This document shows, piece by piece, positions 8,581 to 48,619 of a DNA stretch of 57,859 nt. How positions within the stretch are numbered: the stretch's first letter is position 1; the number at the start of each line of letters is the position of its first letter. Position numbers and translations under genes: made by a program. Source of the stretch: Flavobacteriaceae bacterium (GTDB lineage: Bacteria > Bacteroidota > Bacteroidia > Flavobacteriales > Flavobacteriaceae); contig JANQHL010000230.1 in assembly GCA_028277085.1 (NCBI GenBank), positions 1 through 57,859 of the forward strand, given 5' to 3'. Under the pieces are notes generated by a model. It had not been told where the DNA came from and made no database searches. It saw only the letters and a program-made list of their open reading frames with translations.

Positions 8581-9786
8581 TTGACACGTTTCAGATTCTT
8601 ACTACCTTTTTTCTTTGGGATTGTTTCAATTCTTGAGGCACAAAAACCTCTGGAAAAAGGTAAAATACTCGATTCTATTCCGGTAAATACATCAGACCAT
8701 GAGACTTTTGCCCTATACCTCCCCTCCAGTTTTAATGAAAATACATTAAATCCGGTTGTTTTTGTATTTGAGCCGGCAGCACGAGGAAAAATAGGCGTTC
8801 AGCCCTTTATTAGCTCAGCCGAAAAGTATGGGCTTATTGTTATCTGTTCCAATTCCTCGAGAAATGGTCCGTTTGACCGGAATTTTGATGTCGCTAATAA
8901 TCTATTTAACACTGTTTTTAACCAATTTCCTATAAAAGAGGATGAGATGTTCATCGCAGGATTCTCGGGAGGTTCCAGGCTGGCCACTGCAATAGCCTGC
9001 GTAACGGATAAGTTTTTTGGGGTAATTGCCTGTGGTGCAGGCTTTTCCTCTGTGCCTGCCTATATCCCCTCCCTTCAAAAGTTTTTGTATGCCGGACTAG
9101 TCGGTACCGCAGACATGAATTATTCCGAAATGCTGAGAAACAAAAAACTATTAGGAGAATTAAATTTTACCAATACCCTTTTCACTTTTGAGGCCGGGCA
9201 CAGTTGGCCCGCAACGGTGGAAATAAGTCGTGCTTTTGATTGGTTATATCTTCAACATCCCGACAAGCAAAAAGATCCTTCGTTTAGCAATACATTATCG
9301 AAACAATTTGAGCATACATATCATCTTGCCGTAGCATTTGAGGATACAGGAAAACTGCTATTCGCCGCCGAAAATTATGAAAGAATCATTGCCTCATACA
9401 CCACTTTCTTTGATATAGATAGCATCATTAATAGGTACAATCGCTTATCTAAATCCAAACCTTTTAAAAAAGCCAACAAACAATTATATAAGGCACTAAC
9501 ATTTGAAAATAAGCTCCGAAATAAATTGCTTACTAAACTCAATTCCGATTTACAACAACCTAGTAATATCGATCTTCCTTGGTGGAAGAAAGAAGTAGCC
9601 GATTTGAACGCATTGGGAGATGAAAGTAGTAATAGCGCTATGAAAAATATGGTTAAGCGCCTGAAATTTGTGATAGTAGCAAGCGTATATGAGCGAAATG
9701 GGTCAGATACTGATAACTGGAACGACGTACAACGGAAGATGTTTAGAGAGATTCGGGAAATTGTATTTCCCAGCGACACGCAATAA
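8581..9786 (+). CDS. Secreted alpha/beta-hydrolase-like hypothetical protein with helical C-terminal region
   Basis: TTG start directly after the S41 stop; signal peptide; GFSGG nucleophile elbow; GTAD and AGHSWP as candidate Asp and His. Confidence 0.65.
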   Translation: MTRFRFLLPFFFGIVSILEAQKPLEKGKILDSIPVNTSDHETFALYLPSSFNENTLNPVVFVFEPAARGKIGVQPFISSAEKYGLIVICSNSSRNGPFDRNFDVANNLFNTVFNQFPIKEDEMFIAGFSGGSRLATAIACVTDKFFGVIACGAGFSSVPAYIPSLQKFLYAGLVGTADMNYSEMLRNKKLLGELNFTNTLFTFEAGHSWPATVEISRAFDWLYLQHPDKQKDPSFSNTLSKQFEHTYHLAVAFEDTGKLLFAAENYERIIASYTTFFDIDSIINRYNRLSKSKPFKKANKQLYKALTFENKLRNKLLTKLNSDLQQPSNIDLPWWKKEVADLNALGDESSNSAMKNMVKRLKFVIVASVYERNGSDTDNWNDVQRKMFREIREIVFPSDTQ

Positions 9787-11193: not shown

Positions 11194-11625
11194 TTACCGA
11201 CAAGGTATTTTTTCAATCCTTCTTTCATGACGTCCTCCTTCAAATGCTGTGCTTAAAAAAGTATCCACCATCTCCAAAGCCTGTGTTAGTGCGATAAACC
11301 TTGCAGGAAGGCTTAATATGTTTGCATCATTATGTTCCCTGGCTAAAGCTGTAATTTCTTTGTTCCAACATAATGCACCACGCACACCTTGGTGTTTATT
11401 TACGGTCATTGTTGCCCCATTACCACTCCCACAAATAACAATACCCAAATCTACTTTTCCCTGCTGCACATCCAATGCTACTGGATGAACAAAATCTGGA
11501 TAATCCACACTATCCGATCCATCCGTACCGTAGTTATTCACCTCAATGCCCTGTGATTTTAACATTCCAACAATAGCCAATTTGTATTCCGTACCTGCAT
11601 GGTCATTTCCAATAGCAATTTTCAT
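11194..11625 (-). CDS. rpiB: Ribose-5-phosphate isomerase B
   Basis: MKIAIGNDHAG, DYPD, ICGSGNG, AREHNDAN and FEGGRHERR. Start moved to the internal ATG at 11625. Confidence 0.95.
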   Translation of the reverse strand: MKIAIGNDHAGTEYKLAIVGMLKSQGIEVNNYGTDGSDSVDYPDFVHPVALDVQQGKVDLGIVICGSGNGATMTVNKHQGVRGALCWNKEITALAREHNDANILSLPARFIALTQALEMVDTFLSTAFEGGRHERRIEKIPCR

Positions 11626-11664
11626 AGTCAAAGGATTGATAATGGGTTCTTCATAAAGGTACAA

Positions 11665-12216
11665 TACTTTTTATTTGACAGCGTTCAAAAACCCTTATAA
11701 ATTATTGTAGATAATTAAATATCAACAGTTTAAGAATTACTACAATTGTTGATATTCTTACAAAAAAAATAGAGTAATAAAGTTGGATAAGTGCCTCAAA
11801 ATTTTCAATACCACTTTTTAGATAAACTTAAGTTGATATTTTATTAAAAATTAACCAACAATTTTTAAACGTTAAGCACCTGGAATTAACATTAATCTAA
11901 TACTAAGTTATCGATAAATTTATGTTGAAATGTAATTCCAAAAGACGTTCATAACAAAAGTAACCTCCTGATTAGTAATACACAGACAAATTCATAAACT
12001 GTCAACAAAGTTTATTTTCTGTTGAAGTCAAGATTTTTTAGAAAAATTTATATCACAAATTCACAGGCTATCATATACTCCTAAAGTGAAATTTTAAATA
12101 ACAAAAAAGCATATTATTTAATAGTATATGTTAACAATTTTTGATTCTAAAAAAAGATATAGCAGTGTAAAAATTGTGAGAACATATAATTTGTAATTTC
12201 ATTTAAATTTTGCTGA
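11665..12216. other. Candidate chromosomal replication origin (oriC)
   Basis: Very AT-rich spacer between divergent rpiB and rnr. Degenerate DnaA boxes include TGTAGATAA 11706, ATATCAACA 11719, TGTTGATAT 11747, GTTGGATAA 11782, AGTTGATAT 11831 and CTGTCAACA 11999. The module TATATCACA-AATTCACA-GGC-TAT-CAT at 12049-12074 is followed by an AT-rich tract. parS sites and mnmG lie ~35 kb away. Confidence 0.75.
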
Positions 12217-14406
12217 ATGTCTAAAAAGAAAAAACGTGCCAGAGGTCAACGTAAAAATGAAATTACCAAGGGTATATTTACTGTTCTGGAGGAAGAACCT
12301 GGCAAAAGTTTTAATTACAAGCAAATAGCAGCAAAGCTTAGTATTTCTGACACTCAGGGAAGGAATGAGTTGATTAAGAGGCTGGGGCAACTCAAGGAAA
12401 AAGGAAGAATTACCGAAACGGTCCGGGGAAAATATCAGAAATACCCTTCTGAAAAAATTGTGTTTGAAGGGAAAGTGGATGTAGCGCTTAATGGTAATGC
12501 TTACATTATCGTAGAGAATATTGAGGAAGACGTATTTGTACCGAATACAAGGCTTAATAAGGCTTTTCATGGGGACCAGGTTGAAATTACTTTAAAGCGA
12601 AATAAAAAAGGAAAAAGGCCTGAAGGAGAAGTGCAAAAAATCTTAAAGCGGGCCAAGACCAATTATGTAGGTATACTGGAATTACACAAAACTTTTGCTT
12701 TTGTCAGGCCAACGGATCCTAAAATGTATTCTGATATTTTTATACCTCAAGAGAAGATAAATAAGGCTGCAAATGGAGATAAGGTGGTCGTGGCTTTAGG
12801 AGAATGGCCGGAAGGTGCGGATTCTCCATATGGTAGTGTGGTAAAGGTTTTAGGAAAACCAGGAGAACATGGAGCCGAAATTCATGGTATTTTGGCGGAG
12901 TATGGGCTCCCCTATGAGTTTCCTTATGAGGTGCAGCAGTATGCAGATAGTATAGATACCGGTATCAAAGAAGAGGAAGTTGCTAAGCGCAGGGACATGA
13001 GAGGTGAACTTACGTTTACCATTGATCCTAAGGATGCTAAGGATTTTGATGATGCATTGTCCTTGAAAGTACTGGATAATGGTAATTACGAAATTGGAAT
13101 TCACATTGCAGATGTATCACATTATGTGATTCCTGAAACGCTACTTGATGATGAGGCCTATAACAGAGCAACATCGATTTATCTTGTTGACAGGGTAGTA
13201 CCAATGCTCCCAGAAATTCTTTCGAATAACGCCTGTTCCCTAAGGCCACATGAAGACAAATACACATTTTCAGCGGTTTTTGAAATGGATACTTCTGCTG
13301 TGGTTCGAAAAGAATGGTACGGAAGAACAGCAATTAATTCAGATGAGCGCTTTTCTTATGAAGAGGCGCAATATGTTATTGAAACAGAATCTGAGGTTAT
13401 TCCTGAAGAAGTTTCGATTCGGACAGGAGCTTATAGCATTTCAAGTGAAGTATCGGAGGCAATTCTTTCCTTAAACCAACTGGCTAAAATAATGAGGGAA
13501 AGAAGAATGGAAGCAGGTGCGATCTCTTTTGATAAAATTGAAGTTAAATTTAATTTGGATAACGAAAACAATCCGGAAAGTGTTTATTTTAAAGAGGCCA
13601 AGGAAGCGAATAAACTGATTGAGGAATTTATGCTCCTGGCTAATCGAAAAGTTGCAGAATTTATAGGAAAACAAAAACCAAAGAAAACTTTTGTTTACAG
13701 GGTCCATGACGAACCGGATGAAGAAAAATTAATCGCACTTAACGGAGTAATTTCCAAATTTGGCCATCATGTTGATATGAGAAGTCGTACAGCAATAAAT
13801 AACTCTCTAAACAAAATCCTGGAGGATGTAAGAGGAAAAAAAGAGCAGAATTTGGTGGATACTTTAGCAATAAGAAGCATGAGTAAAGCAACTTATACCA
13901 CTGATAATATCGGACATTATGGTTTGGCTTTCGAGTATTACACCCATTTTACCTCTCCTATAAGACGGTATCCGGATGTTTTAGTGCATAGATTATTGGC
14001 TAACTATTTGAATAACCAAAAGTCGCCTCCGGAAAAGATTTACGAAGAACTGTGCAAACATTCTTCTGATATGGAACTGCTTGCAGCGAGTGCAGAACGG
14101 GATTCCATAAAATACATGCAAATTAAGTATATGGAGGATCATGCAGATAAAGATTTTTTGGGAGTGATCTCTGGGGTAACCGAATGGGGGATTTATGTGG
14201 AGATTATGGAGAATAAATGTGAAGGAATGGTTCGCATTCGTGATATCAAGGATGATTATTACATTTTTGACGAAAGACAATATGCGATTGTTGGAGAACG
14301 TTTCGGGGAAATATATCAACTTGGAGATGAGGTAGTAGTCAGGGTGAAAAGTACGGATTTGATAAAGCGACACCTAGATTTTAGCCTTGTTGGAAGAAAT
14401 ATGTAA
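12217..14406 (+). CDS. rnr: Ribonuclease R
   Basis: FTIDPKDAKDFDDA (RNB catalytic), IEEFMLLAN, YTHFTSPIRRYPD, cold-shock domains and C-terminal S1. Confidence 0.96.
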   Translation: MSKKKKRARGQRKNEITKGIFTVLEEEPGKSFNYKQIAAKLSISDTQGRNELIKRLGQLKEKGRITETVRGKYQKYPSEKIVFEGKVDVALNGNAYIIVENIEEDVFVPNTRLNKAFHGDQVEITLKRNKKGKRPEGEVQKILKRAKTNYVGILELHKTFAFVRPTDPKMYSDIFIPQEKINKAANGDKVVVALGEWPEGADSPYGSVVKVLGKPGEHGAEIHGILAEYGLPYEFPYEVQQYADSIDTGIKEEEVAKRRDMRGELTFTIDPKDAKDFDDALSLKVLDNGNYEIGIHIADVSHYVIPETLLDDEAYNRATSIYLVDRVVPMLPEILSNNACSLRPHEDKYTFSAVFEMDTSAVVRKEWYGRTAINSDERFSYEEAQYVIETESEVIPEEVSIRTGAYSISSEVSEAILSLNQLAKIMRERRMEAGAISFDKIEVKFNLDNENNPESVYFKEAKEANKLIEEFMLLANRKVAEFIGKQKPKKTFVYRVHDEPDEEKLIALNGVISKFGHHVDMRSRTAINNSLNKILEDVRGKKEQNLVDTLAIRSMSKATYTTDNIGHYGLAFEYYTHFTSPIRRYPDVLVHRLLANYLNNQKSPPEKIYEELCKHSSDMELLAASAERDSIKYMQIKYMEDHADKDFLGVISGVTEWGIYVEIMENKCEGMVRIRDIKDDYYIFDERQYAIVGERFGEIYQLGDEVVVRVKSTDLIKRHLDFSLVGRNM

Positions 14407-16368: not shown

Positions 16369-17343
16369 TCAATAGGTACACCTACAGTTGCTAATGCCTT
16401 GAAATAGATCCATACCAACGGTCAACACATGGGTTCCGGAACTATATCCTAAAATTTCATTGGCAATTACCTGATAAGAGTATCCAAAATAAAAATTGCT
16501 CTTTTTCAATCCTGCTATTGGGGCGATATAAAGCGGAGTCCCAATCTGATCATTCAAAAAACGGTATGTTAACCCTAGGTAGTAATAATCTTCAAAGTCA
16601 TGAAAACGGAATTTAGTGTTTAAATCCGTTACGGACCGACCATCACTTTCAAACCATTGAAAAAACACGGAGGGCTCTACCTCTATCTTACTGTTGTTGT
16701 TTTTAGAAAAACTATAGCCGGTATAGACATAATAGTTGCGCAGGGTGTTGGGCTCAAAAATTGGATTGAAAGTAGCTAAGTCTTTGTTAAGCAGATTGGA
16801 TGCGTTAAGGCTGAAATAAAACTTATCATACCGATACAATACCCCAACATCAAAATTGTGATTGGTCGTAGCGCGATCATCGGTTACCCCGGGATCATTG
16901 TTGTTCGTGAAATTTTCAATGTCAATTCTAAACTGATTGAAATTATAACTGATCCCAAAAGAAAGGAATTCATCATCGTAACGATCCAGGGTCAAGTGGT
17001 GGGCAAAGGAAACCCGTGACCCCCGTTGCTTCGTCTCTCCATTACTATCATTATACAACAACAACCCGATGCCGGATCGATTGCCTATTCTGGCATCGGC
17101 AGCCAGTGTTTGTGTATCCGGCGCATCTTCAATACCCACCCATTGGGTTAATCCGTTCAGCCTAACTTTAATGTGATCACCAATCCCTGCATAGGTGGGC
17201 GACATTAAAAAGGGGTTATCTGCAATATACTGCGACAGTTGCGGAATGGTCAGTTCCTGGCCTCTTGCCATTAAGCCAATGAGCAGCAACAGGGTTAAGA
17301 TTTGGGTCTTCTTCATGGGGCAATAGGTTAATTCTTTTGTCAT
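16369..17343 (-). CDS. sprF: PorP/SprF-family T9SS outer-membrane beta-barrel (SprF-like)
   Basis: P.YAG, QWVGIEDAP.TQ, D.NG, FGYSY and GTH motifs; immediately downstream of sprB with an ATGA overlap. An alternative start is at 17316. Confidence 0.85.
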   Translation of the reverse strand: MTKELTYCPMKKTQILTLLLLIGLMARGQELTIPQLSQYIADNPFLMSPTYAGIGDHIKVRLNGLTQWVGIEDAPDTQTLAADARIGNRSGIGLLLYNDSNGETKQRGSRVSFAHHLTLDRYDDEFLSFGISYNFNQFRIDIENFTNNNDPGVTDDRATTNHNFDVGVLYRYDKFYFSLNASNLLNKDLATFNPIFEPNTLRNYYVYTGYSFSKNNNSKIEVEPSVFFQWFESDGRSVTDLNTKFRFHDFEDYYYLGLTYRFLNDQIGTPLYIAPIAGLKKSNFYFGYSYQVIANEILGYSSGTHVLTVGMDLFQGISNCRCTY

Positions 17344-20300
17344 CTGTACAGGGTAAAATGTCCGACAAACTCTCTGTCATCATTTTCGCCTTGCAACTTT
17401 ATGATATACCAGTAATCTCCGGTTGGAAGATCTGCACTATTATATATTCCATTCCATCCGGTGTCCCCGTAACCCATTCGATAGAGCTCTCTACCATAAC
17501 GGTCAAAAATGATCATTAGTACATTGGGGAAGGCTTCCAGATTCTCAGGAATCCAGTAATCGTTCATTCCGTCTCCATCTGGAGTAAAGAAGTTAGGCAC
17601 TTCAATATCAATGAATTCCATCTCGATCTCGGCAGAGACCTCACATCCTAAACTATCGATTACGGTAACGAGGTACGTATCTGTTCTGTTGATAATATAG
17701 GTATTGTCAGTACCATTATCATTTCCATCAAAAATGATGGTATAGTCCGGTGATCCTCCATTAACTACTGCAGTGATTTCGTTAATGTTATTTTGCTCCA
17801 GCATCAAGGTTAATGGCTCAAAGCTTTCAATCACAAAATCGATAGTATTCATACAACCATTGGCGTGGACTAGGGTCAAATAATGGTCGCCAGGGGCTAT
17901 GTTGGTAAAATCGGGAGTTAGCTGAAGATCGGCGGGATCGGTTGAGTCTAATGCATATAGCACATCTCCACTTACTGAAGAATCTTCAAGCGTCACCTCC
18001 AAAGTGTTTTCCGGAATCACACCGTTGCACGTATATATCGGAATAACCGTTGCATTCAGATTTACCCCGGGGTTGATTTCTACAATAACGTTAGCTTCAC
18101 AGTCCTGTTCATCCCTAATAAAGACCACGTGGGTTCCTGCTGGCAGGTTGCTGAAGGTCAACTGATCCTGTACATAATCGGCGTCATTATTAGTGTTCAG
18201 ACTTGTACGATACGGTGCGGTTCCTCCCGTGATTTCCAGATCAAAAGACCCATCGGCATCACCTACACACACCTCATGCTGGATGTTGATTGCGCTAGCT
18301 GCAATCGGATCTGGTTCGATAATAGGGAATTGGAACGTGATAAAGCAGCCATTTCTGTCCTGCGCGATAACGTCGTATACCCCTGGAGCTAACCCGGTGA
18401 AGGTATTTACTGTATCAAACTGGTTCAGATTGGGAGTTATAGCGTAGAAGATCTCACCTGTTCCTCCGGAAACTTCTACGGTAATAGTACCATCATCCAA
18501 ACCGGAGCAAGTCACATCGGTGAATTCTTCCCGATCCACTTGTAGGGGTATCGGATCCATAATTGGGATAGGATTGGGAGTGGTCGTTTCACAATCCTGG
18601 CTGATCACTCGTATGTAGTAATTACCCGCCGCCAAACCGCTAAAGGTATTGTTAGCAATGGGTCCTACTATCGGAGCTGAAGTTGCAGGGTCCGCATCGT
18701 ATAACTCATAGAAGTAATCTCCCAAACCACCGCTGGCATTCGCGATAATAGTAGCCGATGCCTCACCGGTACAATTGATGAATGCAGCGCTATCGTCAAT
18801 ATCAAGCGCTAAAGGAGGTACAGGGTCTACAGTGATCTCATTGGAGATCATCGCTTCACAACTGTTGGCATCCCGGATGGTATATTGATACGTCGCTGCG
18901 GGCACACCCGTAAACGTATGCGTATTTCCTCCATTGAAATTGATCCAGGTAGCCGTTGCAATATCAAAATATTGATAGGTGCCGGTAGTATCACCACCTG
19001 TGGCGGTCAGTAACAAGCTGGCATCAGTGGTACACGTCCTTGGGGCGGTCTGTATCAAATTGGCCATTACCTCCGCAGGCTGATCGATTTCCACCTGACC
19101 TGTGGTGACATCACAATTCCAACCATCGGATACCGTAATACTATACACTCCTGCGCCAAGATTATTAAAGGTATTACTGGATTGGAATCCTGAAGTAGCT
19201 ATTGGAGTCATATCCCCAAAATTGGCGTACACATTGAGTTGGTACTGGTAGGTGCCACTTCCTCCAGTGGGCAAGTCTGCTGATACGGAAGCATTGGTGT
19301 CTCCATAACAGGTAAGCGTTACAGGTGGACTGATGTCGGTAACGATTGAAGGAGGAATAGATAATGTTAGGATATCGTGTCGACTTATTGTACAACCCCC
19401 ATCATCTGTGATTTGAACATCATAATCACCTGCCGAAAGCCCGGAGAACACAAATTCGACCACATCGTTTTCCGTATAACTCTGACCTGTAGTGGTATTG
19501 GTCAATACAATGTCGTAAGGAGCATAGCCACCTGAAGGAGTTACTCTAATCTCACCCTGATCGTTGGTACAGGTAACATTAGCAACCTCATCAACAGTAA
19601 CATCCAATTGCATATCCGGAGAAATAATGGTCACTGTATTTGAGGGGTCAACGCAACCGGTGGCTGGGTCCTCGGTAACCTCAACATAGTAATTTCCTCC
19701 AACTAATAATGATGTGGGATCAGGGATAGCGAAGGGATTGGTACTTGTATTTCCGTTTCCGGTTAGCACCGTTGTTCCATCCGTTCGATATACGATGTAA
19801 GAATATGGGCCGCTATATCCGGTTACGTCTATTTCTATAGTTCCCGCATCAGTAAAACAGATGGCAGGAGCGGTTGCTGTTGCCTCCACATGAATCAGAT
19901 CGTAAGGCGCAATGGTATAGGGAGCGGTATCCACATAACATCCGGTAACAGTATCGGTTATCCTAAACGTATAGGTGCCAACATCGGTCAATTCAAATAC
20001 CGCACTTGTAGACGACGGGTTGGATGTCAAACTTCCGGCAGGATTTCCAACAGGGAGTAATTCGAAATCATAGACATTTCCTGGGTGGCCATTGTCTGTT
20101 ATGGTAAGTAGCACCTCTTCAGGGTTCACACAGGTTATTGCCAGGTTTTGTGTGGCTGCAACGGTAAACGTATTGATTGGATCTATGGTCGGTACGATCG
20201 CTGTGGTTGTACAACCGTTGTCATCAACAACGTAGACCGTAATGTTCCGTACCATACCGTTATCAATGATCTCAAATGTATTTGAGGTCTGGAAATTCAC

Positions 20301-23300
20301 ATTGTCAATACTATAGCGATAGGGTGCTGTCCCGTCTGTAGCCGTAACCGTAATTGTCGATGTATTTACGGTATTATCCGGGTTACAGGCGAAAGGTGTA
20401 GCCGTTGCCGAAGCTAGTAAGGCGTTAGGTTGTGTTATTGTTTCGTTTTTGACGTCTTCACATCCTCGGGAAGAAACTACTCTTACCTGGTAATTCCCTT
20501 CAGGAAGACCGGTAAATAAGGGATCGCTCTGTAACGGTCTGCTAGGCGCCCCTGCCAGTCCGATCAATTCATATTGGTAAGGAGGATTATCGTCCGTAGT
20601 GCTATCCAAATTGGCCAGGATGCTGCCATCAGCACCACCAAAACAGCTAACATTTACTATTGTTGCGTCCAGCAGCACGGGTGCAACAAAGTCATCAAGG
20701 GTTGCCGTAATAGTTTTAACACAACTGTGACCTGTGGCCGTATCTGTAATGGTAAAGGTATAAGTGCCTGAATCCGTTAAGTCCGTAAACGTAGCGGTGT
20801 TCGTTACAAGAATATCCGGAAGTGGAGTAGAACTATCCGGGAAGGTTACCGAGTAGTCAAACGCACCGGAACCTCCGGTTTGAGTAATGGTAATATGCCC
20901 TCCGGGATCAGGAGTACAGTCGATAAGTTTGTCAATAGTCACTGCGGGCACAATTTCATCATAGAGCTGCACAGCGTTGGTGATCAGCGAGCACCCCCAT
21001 TGATCAAGGACTTCAACAGTGTAGCTACCCTCTCCTAGATTACCAAAGGTTCTTGTAGTCTGTGGAGAGCCGACGTTACCACCATTTCGGATCAACTGGA
21101 AGGTGTAATTGCTTCCTTGTCCGCCAGTGGGCGCACTAACTTCAATACTTCCCTCAATATTAGTACAATTCGGATTGGTTACCGCAAGGGAGGCTACTAT
21201 GGGGTTAGGCACATCCAGGGTCTCATCAGGCAGTTGCAGTGGACATCCACCAGCATCGATAACCCATATTTCGTAAGTATCCGCCGTAAGGTTTTCAAAC
21301 CTTGGATTAGCGATATAGTTCGCTGGATCAAATTCATCGGGTATTGGGGTTGCACTTACATAGTACAGGTAATTGCCCCATCCCCCTTGAACATCAGTAA
21401 TCTCCAACACTCCGTCCGCACCGGGCACACAGGTGATTTCCTCACGAATTACCAAAGCGGAAAGTCCCGCAGCAGGTCCTCCGATGGTAAACGCCTCTTG
21501 GTAGGTACAATCGGAACCCGGAGGATTGGTATCTACCACTTCTATGAAATAACTGCCGGCTGCCAATCCACTAATGGTAAAATTACCATCCGCATCCCCA
21601 CCGGCCGAAGTTACGTCATCAGCAAGGTTAGTGGGGGTGTTGTTAACATCCTGGTACAACGTATAGGTTATCGCACCAGTATACGTAGTGTTAGTAGCGT
21701 CTTGTAAATCTAGCGTGACCGCACCATCTGTATTACCAAAACAGGTAATATCTGTCGTGCTAACGACATCCAGGTGTAACACCTCAGGATCTGCTACGGT
21801 ATGGGTAGCCGTGATCACACATCCTGTAGTGAGGTTCATAACTTCAAAATTATGGGTGCCTACAGCCAAAGTAAAACTTCCCGAGGCCTGGAAGCTACCT
21901 GAAGGCAACTCACGGAACTCATAATTTGCGGGATTCGTGGTAGAATTGGTCAACAATCCGGTTGCCGTAATGGTAATGTCTTCACCAGAGGTGCAAGTAG
22001 CAGCATTATCAATTGCTATGCTGGCAGATTGTAACGTATCGAAAGGTTGGATAGTAGCTGTGGTACTGCCTACACAACCATTATCATCATAGACATTGAT
22101 AGTATATACTCCACCTTCAAGGGCCGTCTCAATATAGGTAGGGTTGCTGCCGGATTGTACGATTGCAGGCGCCTCAACCGGAACAGTATTAGGGTCATCC
22201 TCTTCAACAAACTCATATATTACATAAGTTCCTGATCCTCCCGTAATACCGGGTTGTACCTCAATAGACGCGTTTTCAGGATTATTACCGGAAGTAGGAG
22301 TACAACCAAATTGATCTACCACAACATTTACGTTGCTTATAACATCAGGCTCCGTAATAACCTGCGTAGTTTCGGCAAAACAACCATTCGAAGCAGTGAT
22401 TCGTATGGTATAGGTAATTCCACCAGCTGAACCTTCTAGGCCTGTAAACTCGGCAGTTGTACCCGTAGCCGGTGAAGTAATCGGAAAGGTAGCACTACTT
22501 CCCGGGCCGGAAATGATTTCATAGCTGTATGGACCAATACCAACATCGGTACTGCTTACGGTAATTATCCCATCATCTGCTCCGTTACAGCTAACATTTT
22601 GGAAAGCGTCAACCGCAATATTTGGAATAACGGCAGTGGGAACATCTACAATTATGCTTCTCATGCAGTTGGGTACTGCGGTGCCGGTATCATAAACGGT
22701 AACCGTATAACTGCCTGCACTACTTGCGTCTGCCCAGACAATAGAAGAGCCTACTATAGCTGTTCTTGCCTGGTTCACAGGGCCTGTGATCTCATAGTCA
22801 TAGTTGCCAGAACCGGAGGTCACATTTATGGTGATCTCAGGGTTATTGGCGGGTGCTGGCTCACAATCCAGTAAAGTAGTAAGGGTAGCATTAAACTGTA
22901 ATGGTGGTACAATACTAAAGGTATCGGTATCGGTACAACCGTTAACATCAGATAACGCCAGGCTTTGTCCGGCCCCGGAACTTAAACCGGTAACCGTATA
23001 TTGGTTAGAACCGTTAAAGGTGATACTTTGACTGGGCCCGCCATTCACACTTAGCGTAAAAGACGGAGAAGCAACCCCAGGATTGGTCAGGGTCATAAGT
23101 ACCTCAAATTGCCCTTCCACAACGCATTCATCTACGACCGCCAAGGTGAACTCAGGGCTTGGGTCTTCGTCAACAGTTATCGGGCGACTTTGAATACAAT
23201 CGTTGGCATCTTTTACGTAGACAATGTAATCTCCGAATTCTACATTAGCAGAGGTGTCCGTAATCCAACCTGCAGAAGTGGCGGTAGGTGGGGCAGCGGT

Positions 23301-26300
23301 ATCCAATAAATACTGGAACTCATAAGGAGGAGCACCAAATTGGGCCGTGGCAGTTATCACCCCAGCATTGAGGTTACAGTTGTCATTAACGGGAGAAGCG
23401 ACATTCAAATCAAGAAGTGTAGGTGCTTGAAGAATAACAAAAGTATCTGAAGCCATTACACAACCGGTATTCGGGCCATTGGTCTCGGTAAAGAGAATAT
23501 AATACTCTCCAGGGGCTATACCAGTAATGGCATCGCTTTCGGGGCCACCAACAGCTCCGGAAATACTTCCAGTAGTTCCAGTGGTGACATTAGTTGTTGC
23601 CACGAATAGCTCATAATCTACATCAGAACCGCCATACCCGGAAACCGTAAAATCCACCGTACCATCAGCAGCTCCGGTACAGGTGATAGCTGTGGTAGCA
23701 TCTATAGTTGAAGCAAGTGTAGATGTAGAAGCCACGGGTACGGTAGCTTCCTGAATATATTCACAATTGGTGTCGTCATCATGTACTACAAAAGTATAGG
23801 TAACCCCGGGCGTTAACCCCGTAAACAAATGGGAGTTGGCCGGTGCCGGAGGCGATGGATCTGCAGGAAACCATGCGGGATCGGCGACATTAAATGCTGG
23901 TGCTGGATATATAGCGAAGTAGAAGGTTCCAAAACCTAAAGTCCCATTATCGGCATCGGCTTCTACAAGCATTTCCCCGCTTCCCGGAGTACAACCTGCG
24001 GTTCCCACCGTGGTGATAAGAACATCCGGACCTGTAGTAATGGTGACCGTGGACAAACTCTCACAACCATTGGCGTCAGTAATACTTACCGTGTAGTCCC
24101 CAAAGTCTAAGCCTGTAAAAGTATGGTTATTGGTCCCGGTGGAAGTGTCATAAGTAAGAGAAACACTAAAATCACTGTTGTAAACATCATAGATGTAATC
24201 TGGAGTTCCTCCTGAAGCATCTACTGTAATGGTTCCCAATTCGTTTCCGGTTGCAGTACAAATTAAATTGGTATTGGAAATGTTAGGTGCAATTACTGCG
24301 GGTTCGGTAATGGAGACCGGGAATGGATCTGATACACAACCTTTATCATCGGTTATAGTGACTTCATAATTTCCGGCAGGCAGACCAGCCGTTTGTGTGC
24401 CATAATTTGTTGAGGTATTGGTCTCTATGACTTCAATTACATAAGGTGGAAGTCCTATTGCGGTGTCTATCGTAACATCGAGAGCGCCATTGGTGTCCCC
24501 ATTACATACCACATGCGTTGGAGTTACTGAGGTGATAACAGGTCTAAGGGCAGGTGTAACAACAACGGTATTCGTAGTTTCAACACATGCTAAAGGGTGG
24601 GTTGTATCGGTAACTCGGAAAATGTAGGTACCATCGGTGTCGGTCGTAAAGATATTTCCATTGGCTCCTGAAAAACCAGTGGTAAAGAAGGTTGCACCAC
24701 CATCATTGGACCATTCGTAACTAAATGTTCCCAGGGCGTCATCCGGCGTAATGGTTATGGAAGCATCCGCTAAACAGGTTAAATCTGCCGTTAAGAGGGC
24801 ACTCGGTTGAGGATGTACGGTAACAGGTATTGCGGTACCCACACAACCAAACTGGTCCCTGACATTTACCGTATATGTGTCTGAGGCTAGGTTCGTAAAG
24901 GAGTAAGTAGTTGCCGACGAAGGAGTCGGGGTCATCCAGGGCCCTCCGTCTATGTTGAACTGATAATTACCGTTTCCTCCCGTAACATCAATTTGTAGTA
25001 CACCATCATTGGTATTCGTAAAACAGGTAGTTGGCGTTACCGTAAAGGCAATATTTGCTGGAGGATCAACAGTTATAGCTACTGTATTTTCACAGTTGTT
25101 GGCGTCTTGAACCCGAACAATATAATCGGCAGGCGCTATTCCACTAAATACAGTATTCCCGCCGTTTGTAGCAAAATCATAGCCTGCAATTGGGGTACCC
25201 CCTGTGTCTTCTAATTGAAATAGATAACCCGGGGTGCCGTCCGTAGCGGATGCTGTGATAACCCCTCCATCAGTACAAGTGGCTGCAGTGGTAACAGAAG
25301 CCGTTGGCGAAACCGCCAAAGGTGCCGTCAAGGTTTGGTTTAGGACCACGGTACAACCCGCTATAGGATTGTCCACATCCCTTATGGTCAAGGTATGGTT
25401 AGTTGCACTTAAGGTATTTATCGTTATCGGGGAAGTGGTTGAGCTTCCCAAAGTGGTGGTAAAGCCATCAAGACTATATTCAAACCCACCGGCCCCAAAA
25501 TTTTCAACTTCAAAAGTGATACTACCGTCGGTAAAGGAAGCACAGCTAATGTTGGAAAAGGCAGTAATGGAAGCATTAAAAGCATAACCAGCATCAATAG
25601 TTACCGGGATATCAATAGTCCCGGCACATACCTCTGGTAGTTGTTCTGCACGAATATTATCGATAGCTACATCATTCCCATTGGTTCCTGTAGCAATTGT
25701 TCGAATTACAATATCAATTGTAGTATTAGCGCCGGGATTCAGTGGAATGGTCAAGTTTCTCCAATCTGTTGGTCCTAAATTCTCAGGTATAGGGCCGGTG
25801 GAGCCACTAGCAATGATTGCGCCAAATGGATCCACAAGTTCGACTAAGATGTTGGGCTCGATGATGTTTCTTCCGGCGCTAACCAAATTGATCACATCCA
25901 GGGAGACCTCGATATCCCGGTTCGGAACGATCTCCACATTTCTTTTACTGTATACAATAGTGTTAACGCCTGGATTTCCTACATTAATAGCGAGATATCT
26001 TCCTCCCGGAGTCCCAGAGGCATCAACCGGACTAACCCAAGCTCCAAAGGGCGCAACAATGGTGTTGGTTACAGAATACTCTAAATCGTTAATACGGGAA
26101 TTGGGACTATTATTCGTACGGCCATCTAAAGGAGCACAGGGAGTAGCTGTACCGTTCTGAGGATCGTAGCAGTAATAATCGCCGTCAATTTCTGAAATCG
26201 GAGTGTTGGGTCCAACCCCAAAATCTTCCAGCAATAAAACACTAGGAGTCGGAGGAATATTACTTGTGTAATTGACAGTAACGGTATAGTTACCTGGGCT

Positions 26301-29300
26301 CTCAGTAAATATATTGGAAGTAGGAGGGCTATTTGGAGTGCCATCTAACTCATAGGTGTAGTCAAAATCGGAACTGTCAGGGGTCAGTGTAATTACTCCG
26401 TCCCCTTCACAGTTGTAGTCTATGCTTACGGCAACATTAGGAGGTGTCGGTTCAGGATCAACGGTAACTGTCATGGGGAAGGTACAGTTGTTGGCGTCTC
26501 TAACGTAAACGGTATGCGTTCCTGGCAATAAGAGTTCTACCGCGCTGGTATCATAGCTTGTACCTCCATTGAAACTATAGTCATAGGGAGCGGTTCCTCC
26601 CAAAACATTGGTAATTCGTACTTCTGCCTCTCCGGAATTACATTCCGCCAATTGGGTCACCGCAGCAGAAGCAGATAGGGTTAGGGGTTCTGAAACCGTA
26701 TAGACCTCGGAGATAGCACAGTTATTAGCATCCCGTACACGAATCGTATAACTACCCGCAGGTTGATTCACAAAGCTATCGGAAGGCTGATAGGTAGCAC
26801 CGTTGTCGATACTGTATTCATAAGGGCCTTCTCCACCGGAGGCAACAATAGTAATAGTCGCCTGGGCTTCCCCACTACAAAGCACAGGGGTATTCGTTAT
26901 GTTTAAAGCAAGAGGGGCATCCTGGGCAATCGTAATATCGAATGTGGCTTCACAGTATCCCGAATTGCCATTGTTATCACGCACATAGACATCGTAGTCC
27001 CCGGCTCCAGTAACATTTATAGGGTTGGTTGTGCCAAAATCGCCCGGCGTAGGGGGTACACCGTCTCCCACGACAGCAAACACATAATTCCCATCTCCTC
27101 CTCCTGCTGTAATGTCGATATCGGTATCCGTGCCACAAGCCGTGATATTTGGGGCGGAGGCTACTACGGTCAACTCCGGATTGATGGTAATAGATGCAGT
27201 ACCGGCACAGTCATTTCCATCCCGGACATCTATGGTATAGGTGCCTGGCCCTAAGCCGGTAAAGACATTATTGGTATCATATACCCCACCATTTAAACGA
27301 TATTCAAAGTTACCGTCTCCTCCGGAAGTTACATTAGCCGTTAAGGTTAAGCCCACTGCAGCATCGTAACAAATGGCATTAGGAACAATAGCCAGGTTAG
27401 GAGCTACGGCCTCAATAATATCAAAGGTGTCTGTAAACGCACAATTGTTAACATCCGTAACCCTAAAGGTGTATTGCCCGCCTAAGGTTAAGTTGTTAAA
27501 GAGCCCGTTGTTCTGTGCTGCTGGAGGTGTAAATCCAATAGGGCCTGCGGTGATTTCATAGGTGTATCCGCCCCAACCGTCAGTGGCTGCAATAAGCACG
27601 GAGCCCGGCACTGGACAAGTGGGTTGTGTAACAGTGGCTGTTGCTAATAAGTCAGCTGCAGGGCCGTCCACAGTTACTGAAGTAATAGCGATACAATTGG
27701 TGGTATTATCGGTTACCTCAATAGTATAAGTTCCCACTCCTAAACTGGAGAATGGTTGCGTTGTAGCGGTTTCATTATTCCCATTGAATGTGGTCGGACC
27801 GGTAATTTCGTAATCGTAATCTGTGCTGAATCCTGAAACGGTAAATTCAATCGCCCCATCCGTGCCGCCAAAACAAGACACATTGCTCACTAGTGACCCT
27901 ACGACGTTAATAGGGGTAACCGGATCAATCGTAAAGGATTCGTCATATACGCACCCTTTATGATCCGTAACCCGGAAGATGTAGGTGTCGGGAGCCAAGC
28001 CATTAAAATCTGCCGAATTTCCTGTGATGGATGTAGCAGCAATTGCGGAAGGCGCAATAATTTCAAAAACATAGGGATCTTCCCCGTCCGTTACGGTTAC
28101 GGTTACATCCGAGGTGTTGGCAGGACAATTAGGAGCAGTTGCCGTGAAACTCAGATCACTGGGAGGGACCAAAGGATCAATAGTAATTGCGTTAGTGGTG
28201 AACGTACAATCGTTATCATCCCGGATAGTAATGGAATAGGTACCATCTGTTAGGTTGGGAAAGGTTTCTGCGCCAGCACCGCTAACAAAATTCACCCCAT
28301 CAATGCTATATTCATAGGGAGCGGTTCCGCCGGTAACATTTTGGACCTCAATACTTGCTTGCTGCAGGCAAGTGTAGTCCTGAAGTAAGACCGCATCTCC
28401 GGAAGGGAGATCGGCCGGACCACCAATTGTAAAGGTTTCAATGAAAGGACATGAAACCGCACCCTGCGTCTGGGTGATGGTTAAGGTGTAATCCCCTTGT
28501 GGTAAACCGGTAAATGCCCCTGAAGTGTTGTTTGCGGTTGAAGTATCAGGATAGGTAAGTTCATAGGTTAAGGTATACCCGTTGCTATTGGTTACGTTGA
28601 CTGTAAAGGTACCATCCTCGATACCAAAGCAGGTTTCATCCGTTTGTGAGGTGGTATATTCTGCAACCGGTGCTACTGCAATAGTTGCTGGATTGGAAAT
28701 ATGGGTACAGTTGTTCCCATCTACCACAATAAACTCATACACCCCGGCTTCTGTGTCGGTAAAAAGAAAATCGTTTCCTATCTGATAGGCACTACCCGGA
28801 ATACTGGCCACATCCGGATAGAGATCGGTACCGTTGTAGCTCCAAATGGCGTAAGCATAGTCCGGATTAGGAAAACCTCCGGTTCCGGTGACCGTAATGA
28901 TCCCCTCAGTACAGTCAATGGGTTTTGTCGTCACCGCGGACACATCTAAGTCAGTAACATCATTTATAGTAACCTGACCCGTATAATTACAGCCATCATC
29001 TGTAGTTACCAGGATATCATACACCCCGTCATTGAGGTTGGCAAAGGTGTAATTATTATCATCAGACGGCCCGAAAGTATCTACGGTAGTGCCGCCCTGT
29101 GAGATTTCATAGTAGTACTGCGGATTTACATCCAACACAGAAATAGAGATCTCCCCCAGCCCATTGCAATCGGTGTCTTTGGTGGCAACATCTACTTGAA
29201 AGTTCCGCTCCAGGATACCAATATTATCTAAGATAAAAACACAACCATCAACAACCCCTTGTTGCCGCATTTCTACACGATATGCCCCATTGGTGGTGAT

Positions 29301-38063: not shown

Positions 38064-39737
38064 ATGAAAAAACTTTCTTCTTTGCTATTTCTGCTATTCC
38101 TAGTGGCTTGTTCAAATACCGGCAACGAAAATAGTGAGCAAGACATGGAAGAGGCATCTTCTGATCCCATTCTTTCAGTTAACAATTTGGACGATCAATC
38201 TACTATTGAAACCTATACGGACATTGAGGTGTCAGTTTCTTCGCATTCCGAGGTTATTACAAGAATATATATTAATGATCAGGAGATTTTTGAAACGGAT
38301 GATCAGGAGTTTACATATCGTTTAAATCCTTATAATATTCCCGTCGGGACTACAACAATTCGTTTTGTTTCTTCTAGTGCTGACAATACTACGGTAGAGG
38401 AGGCCTTTACTATTGATGTAAAGCATTTATTATTTACTACGGAAATAGCAGATGATCAAATTGATAGTATTAATACTATTTGGGATATGGTACATACCCT
38501 AGAGGGAAAATTATTGGCTGTAGAAAAAATGGTTTCCGGACTTAACAAGTTGTATAGTGAGGATATTGTAGAAGGGGAGGAGATATATTATTCCAGAGTG
38601 TACTGCGAAAACAATGATGCGCAGTTCCGCAGAATTGGAACAGCGTACACCTACACTTTGGAATTGGGCGCACATAGAAATATTAGGGATAGGGAGCGCA
38701 CAGATTTACCCAACAGCAATAGATTTACCCTTACTGTTAATGGGTTGCCGGAATCTGAATTTATTGCCTACGTCGAAGCAAGCGGAACAACATATGCCAC
38801 CAATACTTTTGGTTCAGGTTCAAATGGAACTTCGTGGGAGGTAACTGCTGAAACGGGCTTTGAAAATAATACGAACAAGTTATTTTATACCAATCAATCG
38901 TATTTGGTTAGTGTGGAAAACGGGGGAACAGGAAGAAAAGAAGATTACAAATATTTGGTTATTGAAAACCCACAGGACCAGGCCAATATTGTTGTTCAAG
39001 ACCAAGATTTTAATAGTTCATTTTCTAGTTTTCGATTGGATCTACCCCCCGGAATGACCTTTTACAGTATTGGTAGATACGGATTCGAAACAGCTGATGA
39101 TTTACGCCTTGAAACCTATAATAACCATAGAGTTTTTAGCCATGCCAATGCTTACATAGAATATGTTGACTTGCCTATTTTGGACATGTTCGAACATTAT
39201 AGGAATTACGTTAATTATTTGGACCCGGCAACCAATTATATAAATACGTTTATCACATTTGGGAACGAGGTGGCGATGAATAGTATAGCTGGGGAAATTA
39301 CTTTTGCTTCTGAGGAGAAGTCAATAAGAATTTCAACTTCAGCCCTGGACACAGATGCGTTACGTATCGCTTATGGGGGAATAGTAGATGATAATGGAGA
39401 TGATTATTGGGATGGTTTTAATTGGTATTATAGATTGGACCCTAGAAAAGGGGAGCAAAATCAAGTTGTGCTAAGTCTTCCACAAATAATTAATGACGAA
39501 TTTGATAATGGTTTCCTTTTTGAACGGGAACTTGAATTAGAATATGTGGATGTTATTGACTATGAAAAAATCGAAGATTTTGATGATTTCATATTTACAT
39601 TCATTCTGGAAAAAAGAGCGGATCCATTGGAAAATGGGTATCGCATGAAATCATTGTCCAACAATGCTGACCTTAGTAATAAGCAATTGGAAAAGGGGAA
39701 CTCTGAAAAACGAGTTCATGGGTCAACTTTTGAATAA
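38064..39737 (+). CDS. Hypothetical acidic lipoprotein with N-terminal Ig-like domain
   Basis: Lipobox FLVAC followed by an acidic stretch; 'IYINDQEI...FTYRLNP..IPVG...I' Ig-like segment; remainder beta-rich and unrecognised. Confidence 0.7.
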   Translation: MKKLSSLLFLLFLVACSNTGNENSEQDMEEASSDPILSVNNLDDQSTIETYTDIEVSVSSHSEVITRIYINDQEIFETDDQEFTYRLNPYNIPVGTTTIRFVSSSADNTTVEEAFTIDVKHLLFTTEIADDQIDSINTIWDMVHTLEGKLLAVEKMVSGLNKLYSEDIVEGEEIYYSRVYCENNDAQFRRIGTAYTYTLELGAHRNIRDRERTDLPNSNRFTLTVNGLPESEFIAYVEASGTTYATNTFGSGSNGTSWEVTAETGFENNTNKLFYTNQSYLVSVENGGTGRKEDYKYLVIENPQDQANIVVQDQDFNSSFSSFRLDLPPGMTFYSIGRYGFETADDLRLETYNNHRVFSHANAYIEYVDLPILDMFEHYRNYVNYLDPATNYINTFITFGNEVAMNSIAGEITFASEEKSIRISTSALDTDALRIAYGGIVDDNGDDYWDGFNWYYRLDPRKGEQNQVVLSLPQIINDEFDNGFLFERELELEYVDVIDYEKIEDFDDFIFTFILEKRADPLENGYRMKSLSNNADLSNKQLEKGNSEKRVHGSTFE

Positions 39738-42768: not shown

Positions 42769-42883
42769 GCCGAAGCGCCGAAGTGAAAATCGTTGTTTTT
42801 AAATTATCCTTCCACGATTTAACATAAAATTGGAACCGGATATTTCAGGTTATGGCTATTTTGGAATAAATAATAACGGTCTA

Positions 42884-45800
42884 TTGGGTAGCTTTGAACA
42901 TATTGTAAGAAAGTTAGAGGAGTTTACCAGGAAATACTATACCAAGTTGCTGGTTAAGGGATTGCTACTGTTTATTACCTGGAGCACCTTACTTTTTCTT
43001 TTGATCACAGGAGTTGAATATTTTTTTTGGCTCGGATCTGTGGGTAGACTCATCCTGCTTTTGGTTCTCGTAGTATTAGGACTGCTTTTAGCATACTTCT
43101 ATTTACTGGTGCCAATACTGTATCTCCTAAAAATTAAAAAAGGCATTAGTGCGAAAGATGCCTCCAGGTTAATAGGGAAGCATTTTCCCGCAGTAGGCGA
43201 TAAATTGCAAAATCTGCTGGAGTTGAAGCAGATTCCTGGTGGGTCAGATCTTTTACTGGCGGCAATTGAACAACGTTCCCGGGAAATGCGACCGGTTTCC
43301 TTTAAAGAGGCGGTTAAATTTCGTGAATCATATACCTATTTCAAATATTTATTAGTGCCCTTGGTGGTACTGGGCCTGATATGGATTTCTGGAAGTGTAT
43401 CGGATTTTTTCAAGTCTTATGAAAGGGTGGTACACTATGATTTGGCATATACGCCACCAGCCCCTTTTGTTTTCGAATTAAGGAATGAAAGCCTGACTAT
43501 TCTTGAAGGGGAGCCATTGACGGTTACCGTTACAACAGAAGGGGATATTCGACCGCAAGGCATAGAAATCCTTGTAGGGGGTAAACGGTTAACCATGCAA
43601 CAGTCCGGAGGGGTATATGAATACACGATGCAGGCGATTACCGAGGGGTTTACCTTTTACTTCTTGGCCAATGAGGTACGATCAAGAGATTATGAAGTTC
43701 GGGTTATTCGAATCCCAGTAATCACCAACTTCGTAATGTACCTGGACTATCCGGGCTACTTGGATCGAAGCGATAAGGAGATCACCGGTACTGGGAATGC
43801 GAGGGTTCCGGAAGGTACTCGAATAAGTTGGAAGCTTAAGGGGATCAATACCAGTAAGGTGGACTTCGTTGAGGGGGATAGTGTTGTGGAATTTGAGAAA
43901 AGGGAAAGCGGATTTCTTTTAACAAAACCGGTATTCAATGATTTGACCTATACGTTGTCGACTTCTAACGAACGCGTTCAGGATTTCGAAAAGCTTACGT
44001 ATAACCTTAAGGTTATCAAGGACGAATCGCCGGCATTAAAGGTTACGCAGCAATTGGATTCACTGAACCCAAACCTATCGTTTTATGAGGGTTTGGGATC
44101 AGACGATTACGGTATAGCCGAGATTACCATGAGTTATTATCCCATTGGTGAACCGGAAGAGGTTAAGCAAATGAAGCTTATGATACCGGAATCCACGGTA
44201 CAACAGTTTTACTACACCTTTCCTACAGGCCTGGCTATTGAGCCAGGTAAGGAGTACGAATTGTATTTTGAGATTAGGGATAATGATCCTTTTAGGGGGG
44301 GCAAGGTAACGCGTAGCCAAGTGTTTAGGACCTCGGTTTTGGACGATAATCAATTGGAGGAGAGGAGGTTAGAAAACCAGGAGGATTTAATTAAGGGCCT
44401 AAGTGATACTTTGAAAGAGCAGCGGGAACAACAGGAGCAATTGGATAAACTCAATGACCAACAACGGCAAAACTCAAAATTGGACTTCAGTGGGCAACAA
44501 AAGATAAAGGAGTATCTGAAGCGGCAACAATTACGGGAGAGTATGATGGAAAAATTTACCCGGGAACTTAAGGAAAACATAGCAAAAAGGGAGGGGCAGT
44601 CTGAGATGGATGAATTGTTGCTGGAACGGTTGGCACGCCAGGAAATGGAGGCTAAGAAGAATCAGGAATTGTTGGAGAAGTTGAATGAGGTAGCCAGCAA
44701 AATTGAGCAAGAAAAATTGCAAAAGAAGTTGGAGGAACTTGCAAAGTCACAAAGCTCTAATGTACGTAATTTGGAGCAGTTGGTGGAGTTGACCAAGCGG
44801 TATTATGTTACGGAAAAGGCCGCTCAATTGGCGCAGCAGCTAAAGGAATTAGCTGAGGAACAGGAGAAGCTTTCGGATGAGGAAATAAATAAAGAGTATA
44901 CGGAGGAGCAGCAGAATGCTTTGAATGAACAGTACGAGGTATTGGAGAAGGCCCTGGAAGAGCTTAAGCGAGACAACGAAGACCTTAAGAAACCTTTGGA
45001 TCTTGGCATAGAAGAGGGTAAGGAAAAATCAATTGCTGAGGATCAAAAGGAAGCCCTTGAGGAGATCAGGAAGCATCAAAGCATAGAGGAAACGGGCATG
45101 GCGCAGGAGCGGAAAGAAGCGGCTAATAAGGCCTCGGATAGACAAAAATCAGCGGCGTCAAAGATGAAGGAGCTTTCCGAACAAATGCAGGAAGGCGCAA
45201 ACCCCGGGGCAGGAGGTTCTTCTATTACGGAAGATGCTGAAATGCTACGACAGATATTGGATAATCTTTTGGTGTTTTCCTTTGAACAGGAACAGCTGTT
45301 CAACACCGTAGAGGAAGATGGTATGGAGTTGCGGGAGTTTTCGGGAACTATAAAGAAGCAAAAGGAACTGCAAGGGCTGTTTGGACACATTGATGATAGT
45401 TTGTTTGCGCTGTCATTGCGGAGAGCTGAGCTTGCGGAATTTGTGAATGAACAGATCACAGAGGTATATTATAATATGGATAAATCCCTGGAGGGCATAG
45501 CGGAAAATCAGATCTACCAGGCTGCTTCGTATCAGCAATATACCTTCACTGCGGCTAACGCACTGGCGGAGTTTTTGGCTGATATTTTAGATAATATGCA
45601 GCAAAGTATGATGTCGGGAAAAGGTCAGGGACAGGGCGAGGGTTTCCAACTTCCGGATATTATAAAAAGCCAACAACAATTGCAGGAAAAGATGGAAGGA
45701 GGACAGGGTTCATCGAAAGGCGAGGAATCAGGACAAGGCAATGAAGGGGAAAAAGGACAGGAGCAATCAGGCACTAAAGGTAGAAATGGTTCCGATACTG

Positions 45801-46309: not shown

Positions 46310-46721
46310 TTTTCATTTTGAAGGAAATTTTAAACTCCACGGTAAAAAAGAGTATGCCGATTGGTTAGATAGAGTATTGTCCTCCGAAGGTAAAACTGCC
46401 TACGAGTTGGATTATGTTTTTTGTAATGATGAGTACCTGGCGGAAATCAATCTGAAGTACTTAGGGCACGACACCTATACGGATATAGTGACCTTTGACT
46501 ATTCTGATACGGGTACCCTGAAGGGAGATGTTTTTATCTCAACAGATAGGGTCAGGGAAAACGCAAAACTATTCGAAGTGCCTTTCGAGGAGGAATTGAT
46601 GCGGGTAATGGCACACGGAGTGTTGCATCTGGTGGGTTATAATGATAAGACAGATGAAGACCGCAAGGAAATGAGGGTCAGGGAAAATGAAAAGATACAA
46701 ATGTTCCACGTGGAACCTTAG
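46299..46721 (+). CDS. ybeY: rRNA maturation endoribonuclease YbeY
   Basis: N.KYL.HD..TDIVTF, GDVFIS and HGVLHLVGYND. Confidence 0.95.
   Translation: MAINFHFEGNFKLHGKKEYADWLDRVLSSEGKTAYELDYVFCNDEYLAEINLKYLGHDTYTDIVTFDYSDTGTLKGDVFISTDRVRENAKLFEVPFEEELMRVMAHGVLHLVGYNDKTDEDRKEMRVRENEKIQMFHVEP
46702..46717. promoter_or_regulatory. parS site within the ybeY 3' end
   Basis: TGTTCCACGTGGAACC; matches the TGTTNCACGTGNAACA parS consensus with one terminal mismatch. Confidence 0.85.
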
Positions 46722-48603: not shown

Positions 48604-48619
48604 TGTTCCACGTGGAACA
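48604..48619. promoter_or_regulatory. parS site downstream of mnmG
   Basis: Perfect 16-bp palindrome TGTTCCACGTGGAACA. Confidence 0.9.

Follow-up and report, generated by a model that had tools for sequence, protein, structure and literature searches.

A predicted DnaA-dependent chromosomal origin between rpiB and rnr in a flavobacterium, with lineage-shifted DnaA boxes

The rpiB-rnr spacer and its conserved elements

The window, i.e., the whole stretch of 57,859 nucleotides that was analyzed, is one contig (C181) of a 3.97-Mb draft assembly of a marine flavobacterium comprising 304 contigs (42.5% G+C). An AT-rich, gene-free spacer had been described in the initial annotation between rpiB and rnr at positions 11665–12216. 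These coordinates were right, both flanking genes were identified by profile matches, and the A+T content of the spacer (77%) ranked second among the 302 gaps of at least 300 bp. Since the rpiB start codon conserved in relatives is the ATG at 11625, the true gap extends from 11626 to 12216 (Table 1). The conserved motif next to rpiB is presumably a promoter element of the Bacteroidota −7 type. A search of the spacer against Rfam returned no match. The same contig carries rnpA, mnmG, and a holB-like gene, and the closest named RpiB sequences were from Flagellimonas/Muricauda-type Flavobacteriaceae (84–88% identity).

Among 30 close loci, rpiB and rnr were divergent neighbors in 29, and the last locus was interrupted by a contig end. 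The two genes lie within ~1.2 kb of each other in 21 of 30 complete genomes, the other complete genomes having genes inserted between them. Where genes are inserted before rnr, the origin module described below remains beside rpiB in most cases.

Elsewhere in the window, a minus-strand gene (17340–31736) encodes a SprB-like gliding adhesin of 4798 residues with a type IX secretion signal and is bordered on each side by a PorP/SprF gene. Its G+C content is higher than that of its neighbors and, unlike theirs, its strand bias is nearly absent. The long reading frames 42830–46309 (1159 aa), 38064–39737 (557 aa), and 8581–9786 (401 aa) had no Pfam match at 1e-5.

Table 1. Genes and predicted sequence elements located in the window.
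Position	Strand	Feature	Basis
11194–11625	-	rpiB, ribose-5-phosphate isomerase B, left flank	Matches above the Pfam and NCBIfam cut-offs
11626–12216	.	Predicted chromosomal replication origin, 591 bp	Strand-bias switch, conserved plan
11653–11663	-	Conserved motif, likely rpiB promoter −7 element	Conserved alignment column block; presumed role
11719–11727	+	Box-like 9-mer ATATCAACA, weakly conserved, overlapping the IHF consensus at 11720–11732	Spacer alignment
11747–11755	-	Predicted DnaA box ATATCAACA, family-conserved position	Spacer alignment
11883–11891	+	Predicted DnaA box GAATTAACA, conserved position	Spacer alignment
11908–11917	.	Palindromic predicted DnaA box TTATCGATAA at a conserved position	Spacer alignment
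11923–11931	-	Predicted DnaA box ATTTCAACA, conserved position	Spacer alignment
11946–11954	-	Predicted DnaA box TTATGAACG, conserved position	Spacer alignment
11961–11973	-	IHF-consensus-like site, candidate DNA bend point	Exact in 12/29 and ≤1 mismatch in 23/29 spacers; one mismatch here
11999–12008	.	Predicted DnaA box, readable two ways (CTGTCAACA / TTGTTGACA), conserved position	Spacer alignment
12020–12028	-	Weak box-like site ACTTCAACA, position partly conserved	Spacer alignment
12047–12065	+	Tandem predicted DnaA boxes at head of unwinding module; degenerate here	Module in 29/29 close spacers and 71/76 named loci (those with enough flank; some are near-duplicates of the training set)
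12068–12084	+	Three-base-periodic DnaA-trio-like tract; family pattern C-(Y/A)-A-T-M-A-T-A-A-Y-C-A-Y-C-A-T	71 loci
12089–12161	.	AT tract, candidate unwinding element	50-bp stretches of lowest stability in the window by nearest-neighbor sum, a proxy for stability
12129–12137	-	Predicted DnaA box TTGTTAACA, inward-facing, right-hand end of origin	Conserved; canonical TTATCCACA in 9/9 Ser435 genomes
12217–14406	+	rnr, RNase R, right flank	TIGR02063 above cut-off
46702–46717	.	parS-like palindrome upstream of mnmG	Pattern match
48604–48619	.	Perfect parS-like palindrome downstream of mnmG	Sole perfect match in the assembly
54640–54655	.	Third parS-like palindrome, within a gene	Pattern match

As initially observed, the spacer lacks a perfect copy of the canonical DnaA box TTATCCACA; the closest sequence, at 11706 on the minus strand, has one mismatch. 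TCAAC cores were indeed found at 11719, 11747, 11831, 11923, 11999, and 12020 (six observed versus 1.09 expected), a number reached by none of 1000 dinucleotide shuffles. The proposed lineage-specific shift of the box was supported, but its description as TCAACA-type was wrong: the shift is a replacement of C by A at position 6, and the family consensus is TTAT(T/C)AACA, T being commoner than C at position 5. The variant box TTATCAACA with up to two mismatches occurs 14 times in the spacer versus 6.1 times in shuffled sequences (P = 0.001). Among 550-bp windows taken genome-wide, those over the spacer were the densest in TTATCAACA with two mismatches. The enrichment holds for the variant box, the one-mismatch count of the canonical box not being enriched (P = 0.16). 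With a box matrix using the spacer background, the spacer did not come first genome-wide (15th window). The words enriched in the complete genomes were TATTAACA and TATCAACA, and many of the spacer boxes are readable in both directions. Two other elements pointed out earlier are present but do not exceed chance, namely the inverted pair 11718–11727/11747–11756 (4 inverted pairs of 10 bp versus 1.9, P = 0.18) and the IHF consensus at 11720–11732 (P = 0.16; 413 matches genome-wide), which is exact in only 4 of 29 spacers.

An alignment of 29 spacers placed predicted boxes at conserved positions (11747, 11883, 11908, 11923, 11946, 11999, 12020, 12047–12065, and 12129). The spacer follows a plan shared across the family, in which about ten predicted boxes are combined with an IHF-like site and with tandem boxes that precede a three-base repeat and an AT tract. 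The most conserved element, which the initial annotation did not mention, is the module at 12047–12084 (tandem boxes, two bases, and the three-base repeat), followed by the AT tract. Every third base of the trio-like tract is an A, located on the box strand, in 85–100% of 71 loci; the copy of the present genome drifts past the second repeat. The module of this genome is degenerate and was placed by alignment, and a matrix built without this copy leaves it outside the genome top 10.

The basal unwinding system (BUS) is defined in PMC8287927 by tandem boxes and at least three 3'-NAN-5' trios within 16 bp. The spacer contains tandem boxes (12047–12065) and three such trios at 12075–12083, 9 bp from the box. 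The trio consensus 3'-GAT-5' is matched by the first triplet alone, the family repeat being in a different register: it reads CAT/TAT/AAT on the box strand, so that the opposite strand reads 3'-TAG-5', versus 3'-GAT-5' in B. subtilis. The module is predicted to work like a BUS but is not classed as a canonical one. The site at 11961–11973 provides a conserved IHF consensus inside the predicted origin. No gene for IHF alpha or beta scored above the NCBIfam cut-off in the assembly (92.8% complete); it has two HU/IHF-family genes, both under all HU and IHF cut-offs.

The strand-bias switch and the location of the origin

The spacer was initially interpreted as the replication origin, uncoupled from dnaA. 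To locate the origin, a codon model of leading- and lagging-strand bias was trained on all contigs other than that of the window, and the draft was judged contig by contig. When contigs with six or more genes were ranked, the best origin-type break of the genome fell in the gap 11664|12217 (score of 13.2 versus 9.3 for the next one). In a second fit, the break interval was −1.6 to −0.2 kb. The impression that plus-strand genes are more G-rich to the right was confirmed by computation, with GC skews of 0.03 to 0.31 (10 genes, 8 of them at 0.15 or more) versus −0.01 to 0.10 to the left (5 genes). The raw cumulative GC skew of the window, which is confounded by gene direction, has its global minimum at 2138 and a local minimum at 12080. 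Uncoupling from dnaA was also supported: dnaA is located on another contig (C99) than the spacer (C181), and in all 30 complete genomes it is separated from rnr by 0.8–2 Mb. A search of the draft assembly for dif-like patterns gave no convincing match.

The sampling of complete relatives covered the 200 kb surrounding the spacer together with ten distant windows (G023, G093, G119, and G005) or 80 kb (G176 and G086), the resolution of the skew being only ~10–15 kb. The sign of the bias around the chromosome was negative to the left of the spacer and positive to its right in G023, G093, and G005. The best break of G023 was at −14.7 kb from the spacer, within an interval that includes the spacer. 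In G093 (+14.3 kb) and G086 (−6.8 kb), the spacer scored 2.2 and 3.2 units lower than the best break, respectively, just beyond the 2-unit interval. G176 displayed no strand-bias signal. G119 counts against the spacer: its best break was at −50 kb (25–100 kb away), the spacer was 5.7 units lower, and the local switch was nearly absent. The sharpest test among the relatives was provided by G005, in which rpiB is 10.6 kb from rnr. The break was found ~10 kb to the left of rnr, at a box-bearing gap beside rpiB, before the location of this gap was known. Thus, the switch fits the spacer in the present genome, G005, and G023, and lies within 7–15 kb in G093 and G086; five of the six stretches from complete relatives had a best break or sign change within ~15 kb of the homologous spacer or, for one of them, were uninformative.

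Two further features of the relatives were observed. The interval between the origin module and rnr in G005 consists of ~10 kb of short, partly duplicated genes with a transposase-like frame. The deposited record of G034 starts inside the rpiB-rnr interval, suggesting that it was opened at a predicted origin.

Loci related to datA or DARS likewise carry DnaA boxes and an IHF site. The spacer might accordingly be a DnaA-titrating or DnaA-regulated divergent promoter region with a separate origin close by, at a distance that the resolution of the skew in the relatives would accommodate. Three observations make this highly improbable. Of the gaps of 250 bp or more within the neighboring 80–200 kb, the spacer was the richest in boxes in five of six relatives (that of G023 dropped off the list owing to a spurious ORF), it combines a trio-like tract with the most meltable DNA of the window, and its plan is kept where rnr is displaced.

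The window holds three of the four parS-like palindromes of the assembly. Two of them flank mnmG, ~1.9 kb apart, and this spacing recurs in relatives. Such palindromes are located 8–43 kb from the spacer in the present genome and in five of the six stretches from relatives, and the break fits clearly worse there in four genomes. An origin beside mnmG, at the palindromes 35–43 kb to the right of the spacer, would agree with Ori-Finder, which places oriC near mnmG for some Flavobacteriaceae (PMC12843772 and PMC11278836), and with at least seven Flavobacteriaceae rows of Table S1 of PMC8287927 that use a TGTT(C/T)CACG box. The fits for G119 and G176 do not separate the spacer from the mnmG site. 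However, this TGTT(C/T)CACG 'box' is half of a parS-type palindrome, and the gaps beside mnmG are shorter than 100 bp here. The break was also worse at the palindromes by 6.5–9.1 log units in the present genome, and worse than at the spacer by 6–36 units in G023, G093, and G005. We consider that an origin beside mnmG has very little chance of being correct.

The initial interpretation is supported, with independent computations behind each of its parts: the location of the origin, its uncoupling from dnaA, and the lineage-shifted box. We conclude that this flavobacterium very likely has its DnaA-dependent chromosomal origin in the rpiB-rnr spacer (probability of about 0.93), as a computational prediction.

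DnaA residue 435 and position 6 of the box

The DnaA motif DHATVLHA was found in the present genome and in 30 of 30 complete relatives (31/31), versus DHTTVLHA in E. coli (PDB 1j1v). The DnaA of the present genome thus has Ala at the position of E. coli Thr435, and also Ala twelve residues earlier, where E. coli has Pro (P423). T435 and P423 of E. coli make base-specific DNA contacts, according to PMC2533591 and PMC7561715. Among the best 30 of 401 family genomes by Pfam score, Ser435 was found in two, G195 and G626, and the genus of G195 has Ser435 in 8 of 24 members. In Ser435 genomes, the plan of the spacer is unchanged and canonical TTATCCACA occupies the homologous positions, whereas the Ala members of the same genus have A at position 6 (12 of the 16 Ala435 genomes of this genus had no usable spacer owing to the lack of a long gap beside rpiB, a cut contig, or the lack of an rpiB match).

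Box counts excluded the spacers of G032, G819, and G823, which were under the module threshold. Position 6 was C in 51 of 55 boxes from the nine Ser435 genomes, C outnumbering A in each of them (9/9). In Ala435 genomes, position 6 was A in 91 of 121 boxes, C in 19, and T in 10; A outnumbered C in 28 of 32 genomes, with four ties, and the right-hand box had C in 11 of 26 cases. The boxes of the family may well read TTAT(T/C)AACA because DnaA has alanine at the position of E. coli threonine 435 in the recognition helix. We give roughly even odds to the proposal that residue 435 causes the shift at position 6.

The covariation of residue and box rests on one or two evolutionary events. In the tree, the Ser clade falls within the Ala rows and G626 branches separately, implying two changes, but a single Ser clade was not rejected (AU p = 0.25, in a test on 31 of 89 rows). 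The two Ser lineages also have in common a Q-to-H substitution located seven residues upstream. Six genomes of a sister family (f2) have Ser435 yet mixed boxes (A in 12, C in 6), and also differ at 423 and 439. Within the class, Ala435 also occurs in families f5, f9, f10, and f12 and in most other families of the order, and Ser or Thr in families f2, f3, f4, f6, f8, f11, and f111.

The small number of events, the mixed boxes of f2 despite Ser, the C6 boxes kept in Ala genomes, the residues that change alongside 435, and the many boxes readable both ways would fit another mechanism at the same location. Position 6 would then be relaxed or set by other residues of domain IV, in combination with AT drift and near-palindromic boxes. 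We regard this as a serious contender, a little short of an even chance. It does not readily account for the homologous boxes that switch together within one genus, nor for the excess of A over T (91 versus 10) at position 6 in the AT-rich spacers of Ala genomes, which indicates that the shift is not simple drift. Returning to residue 435, we tentatively propose, with slightly more doubt than belief, a broader scheme in which this residue (Ala versus Ser/Thr) would set base 6 of the box; Flavobacteriaceae would have adopted Ala and A6, and two lineages would have reverted, rewriting every origin box. Opening of the origin would proceed through a trio tract whose polarity is reversed, and the 'flavobacterial DnaA box' TGTTCCACG of origin databases would be a parS half-site.

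Comparison with known origins and proposed mechanism

The locus and the box had already been predicted for some genera. The DoriC-derived Table S1 of PMC8287927 contains at least 73 Bacteroidetes entries among those listed. The entry for Muricauda ruestringensis DSM 13258 matches the rpiB-rnr spacer of Flagellimonas lutimaris (L185; 39/39 bases by eye), that for Zobellia galactanivorans matches the spacer of Z. russellii (L200) at 32 of 36 bases by eye, and the standard box listed for Maribacter sp. HTCC2170 is TTATCAACA (PMC8287927). The automated picks for Muricauda and Zobellia, which are predictions only, consist of the right-hand box and A tracts, unlike the conserved tandem-box module. 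Other family members in the table are assigned to parS-like palindromes, and the entries listed make no tie to the DnaA sequence. The accessible parts of PMC8994065, PMC2275245, PMC4009838, PMC10225481, and PMC4285127 contain no flavobacterial box, and the Ori-Finder 2022 supplements contained no matching terms. In the open-access literature and among the DoriC-derived entries listed, we found no experimentally mapped origin from Flavobacteriaceae, no residue-435 rule, and no printed report of the covariation between residue 435 and the box.

Similarities extend to three other systems. Like E. coli oriC, the predicted origin is apart from dnaA, near mnmG at the chromosome scale, and has, close to the melting region, an IHF-like site that lies between boxes. 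It differs from oriC by non-canonical boxes, the absence of IHF above the cut-off, and a dnaA gene located 20–48% of the chromosome away. The E. coli layout is partly described in PMC10325909. PMC8287927 depicts the B. subtilis basal unwinding system as a similar arrangement of tandem boxes, short spacer, three-base repeat, and AT tract; unlike that of B. subtilis, the predicted flavobacterial origin is not beside dnaA. Epsilonproteobacterial origins also have a lineage-specific box (core TTCAC), and residues 435 and 438–439 of helix 5 were proposed as the cause of its variation (PMC5043019, accessible portion). In contrast to flavobacteria, the shift described in that portion is at position 5 rather than 6, with no within-genus switch shown.

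Beyond the family, a class-wide scan for the module pattern gave matches in 50 of 301 genomes, with many control matches, and among 30 loci inspected, most of those outside the family fell within reading frames. Upstream of rnr, neither rpiB nor a box cluster was found in 14 genomes from eight other families of the order. The sister family f2 retains an origin-like gap upstream of rpiB. In this family, rnr is downstream of rpiB in the same direction, a parS-like site is ~2.5–3 kb away, and the repeat is CAA-rich rather than CAT. A long gap upstream of rpiB is lacking in many Ala435 members of the genus of G195, as well as in three genomes whose DnaA motif reads NHAT (g154/g508), suggesting that the origin moved away from rpiB.

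By analogy with the E. coli and B. subtilis models, DnaA-ATP would occupy the ~ten relaxed boxes, and a protein of the HU/IHF family would bend the DNA at 11961–11973. The tandem boxes (12047–12065) would seed a DnaA filament extending onto the three-base repeat. The AT tract (12089–12161) would then melt, two helicases would load, and forks would depart along the transcription directions of rpiB and rnr. ParB bound to the parS sites 35–43 kb away may segregate the region.

An origin remote from dnaA is ordinary, and this locus had already been predicted for a few relatives. The present analysis assigns a single, consistent origin location and layout to a large family with conflicting database calls, and the spacer suggests itself as a ready-made replicon for building oriC plasmids for environmental flavobacteria. 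The within-genus switch offers a natural experiment on the setting of the box sequence by the DnaA sequence, a link that published work has only proposed. If true, the link between residue 435 and base 6 would be a simple, testable rule of DnaA recognition.
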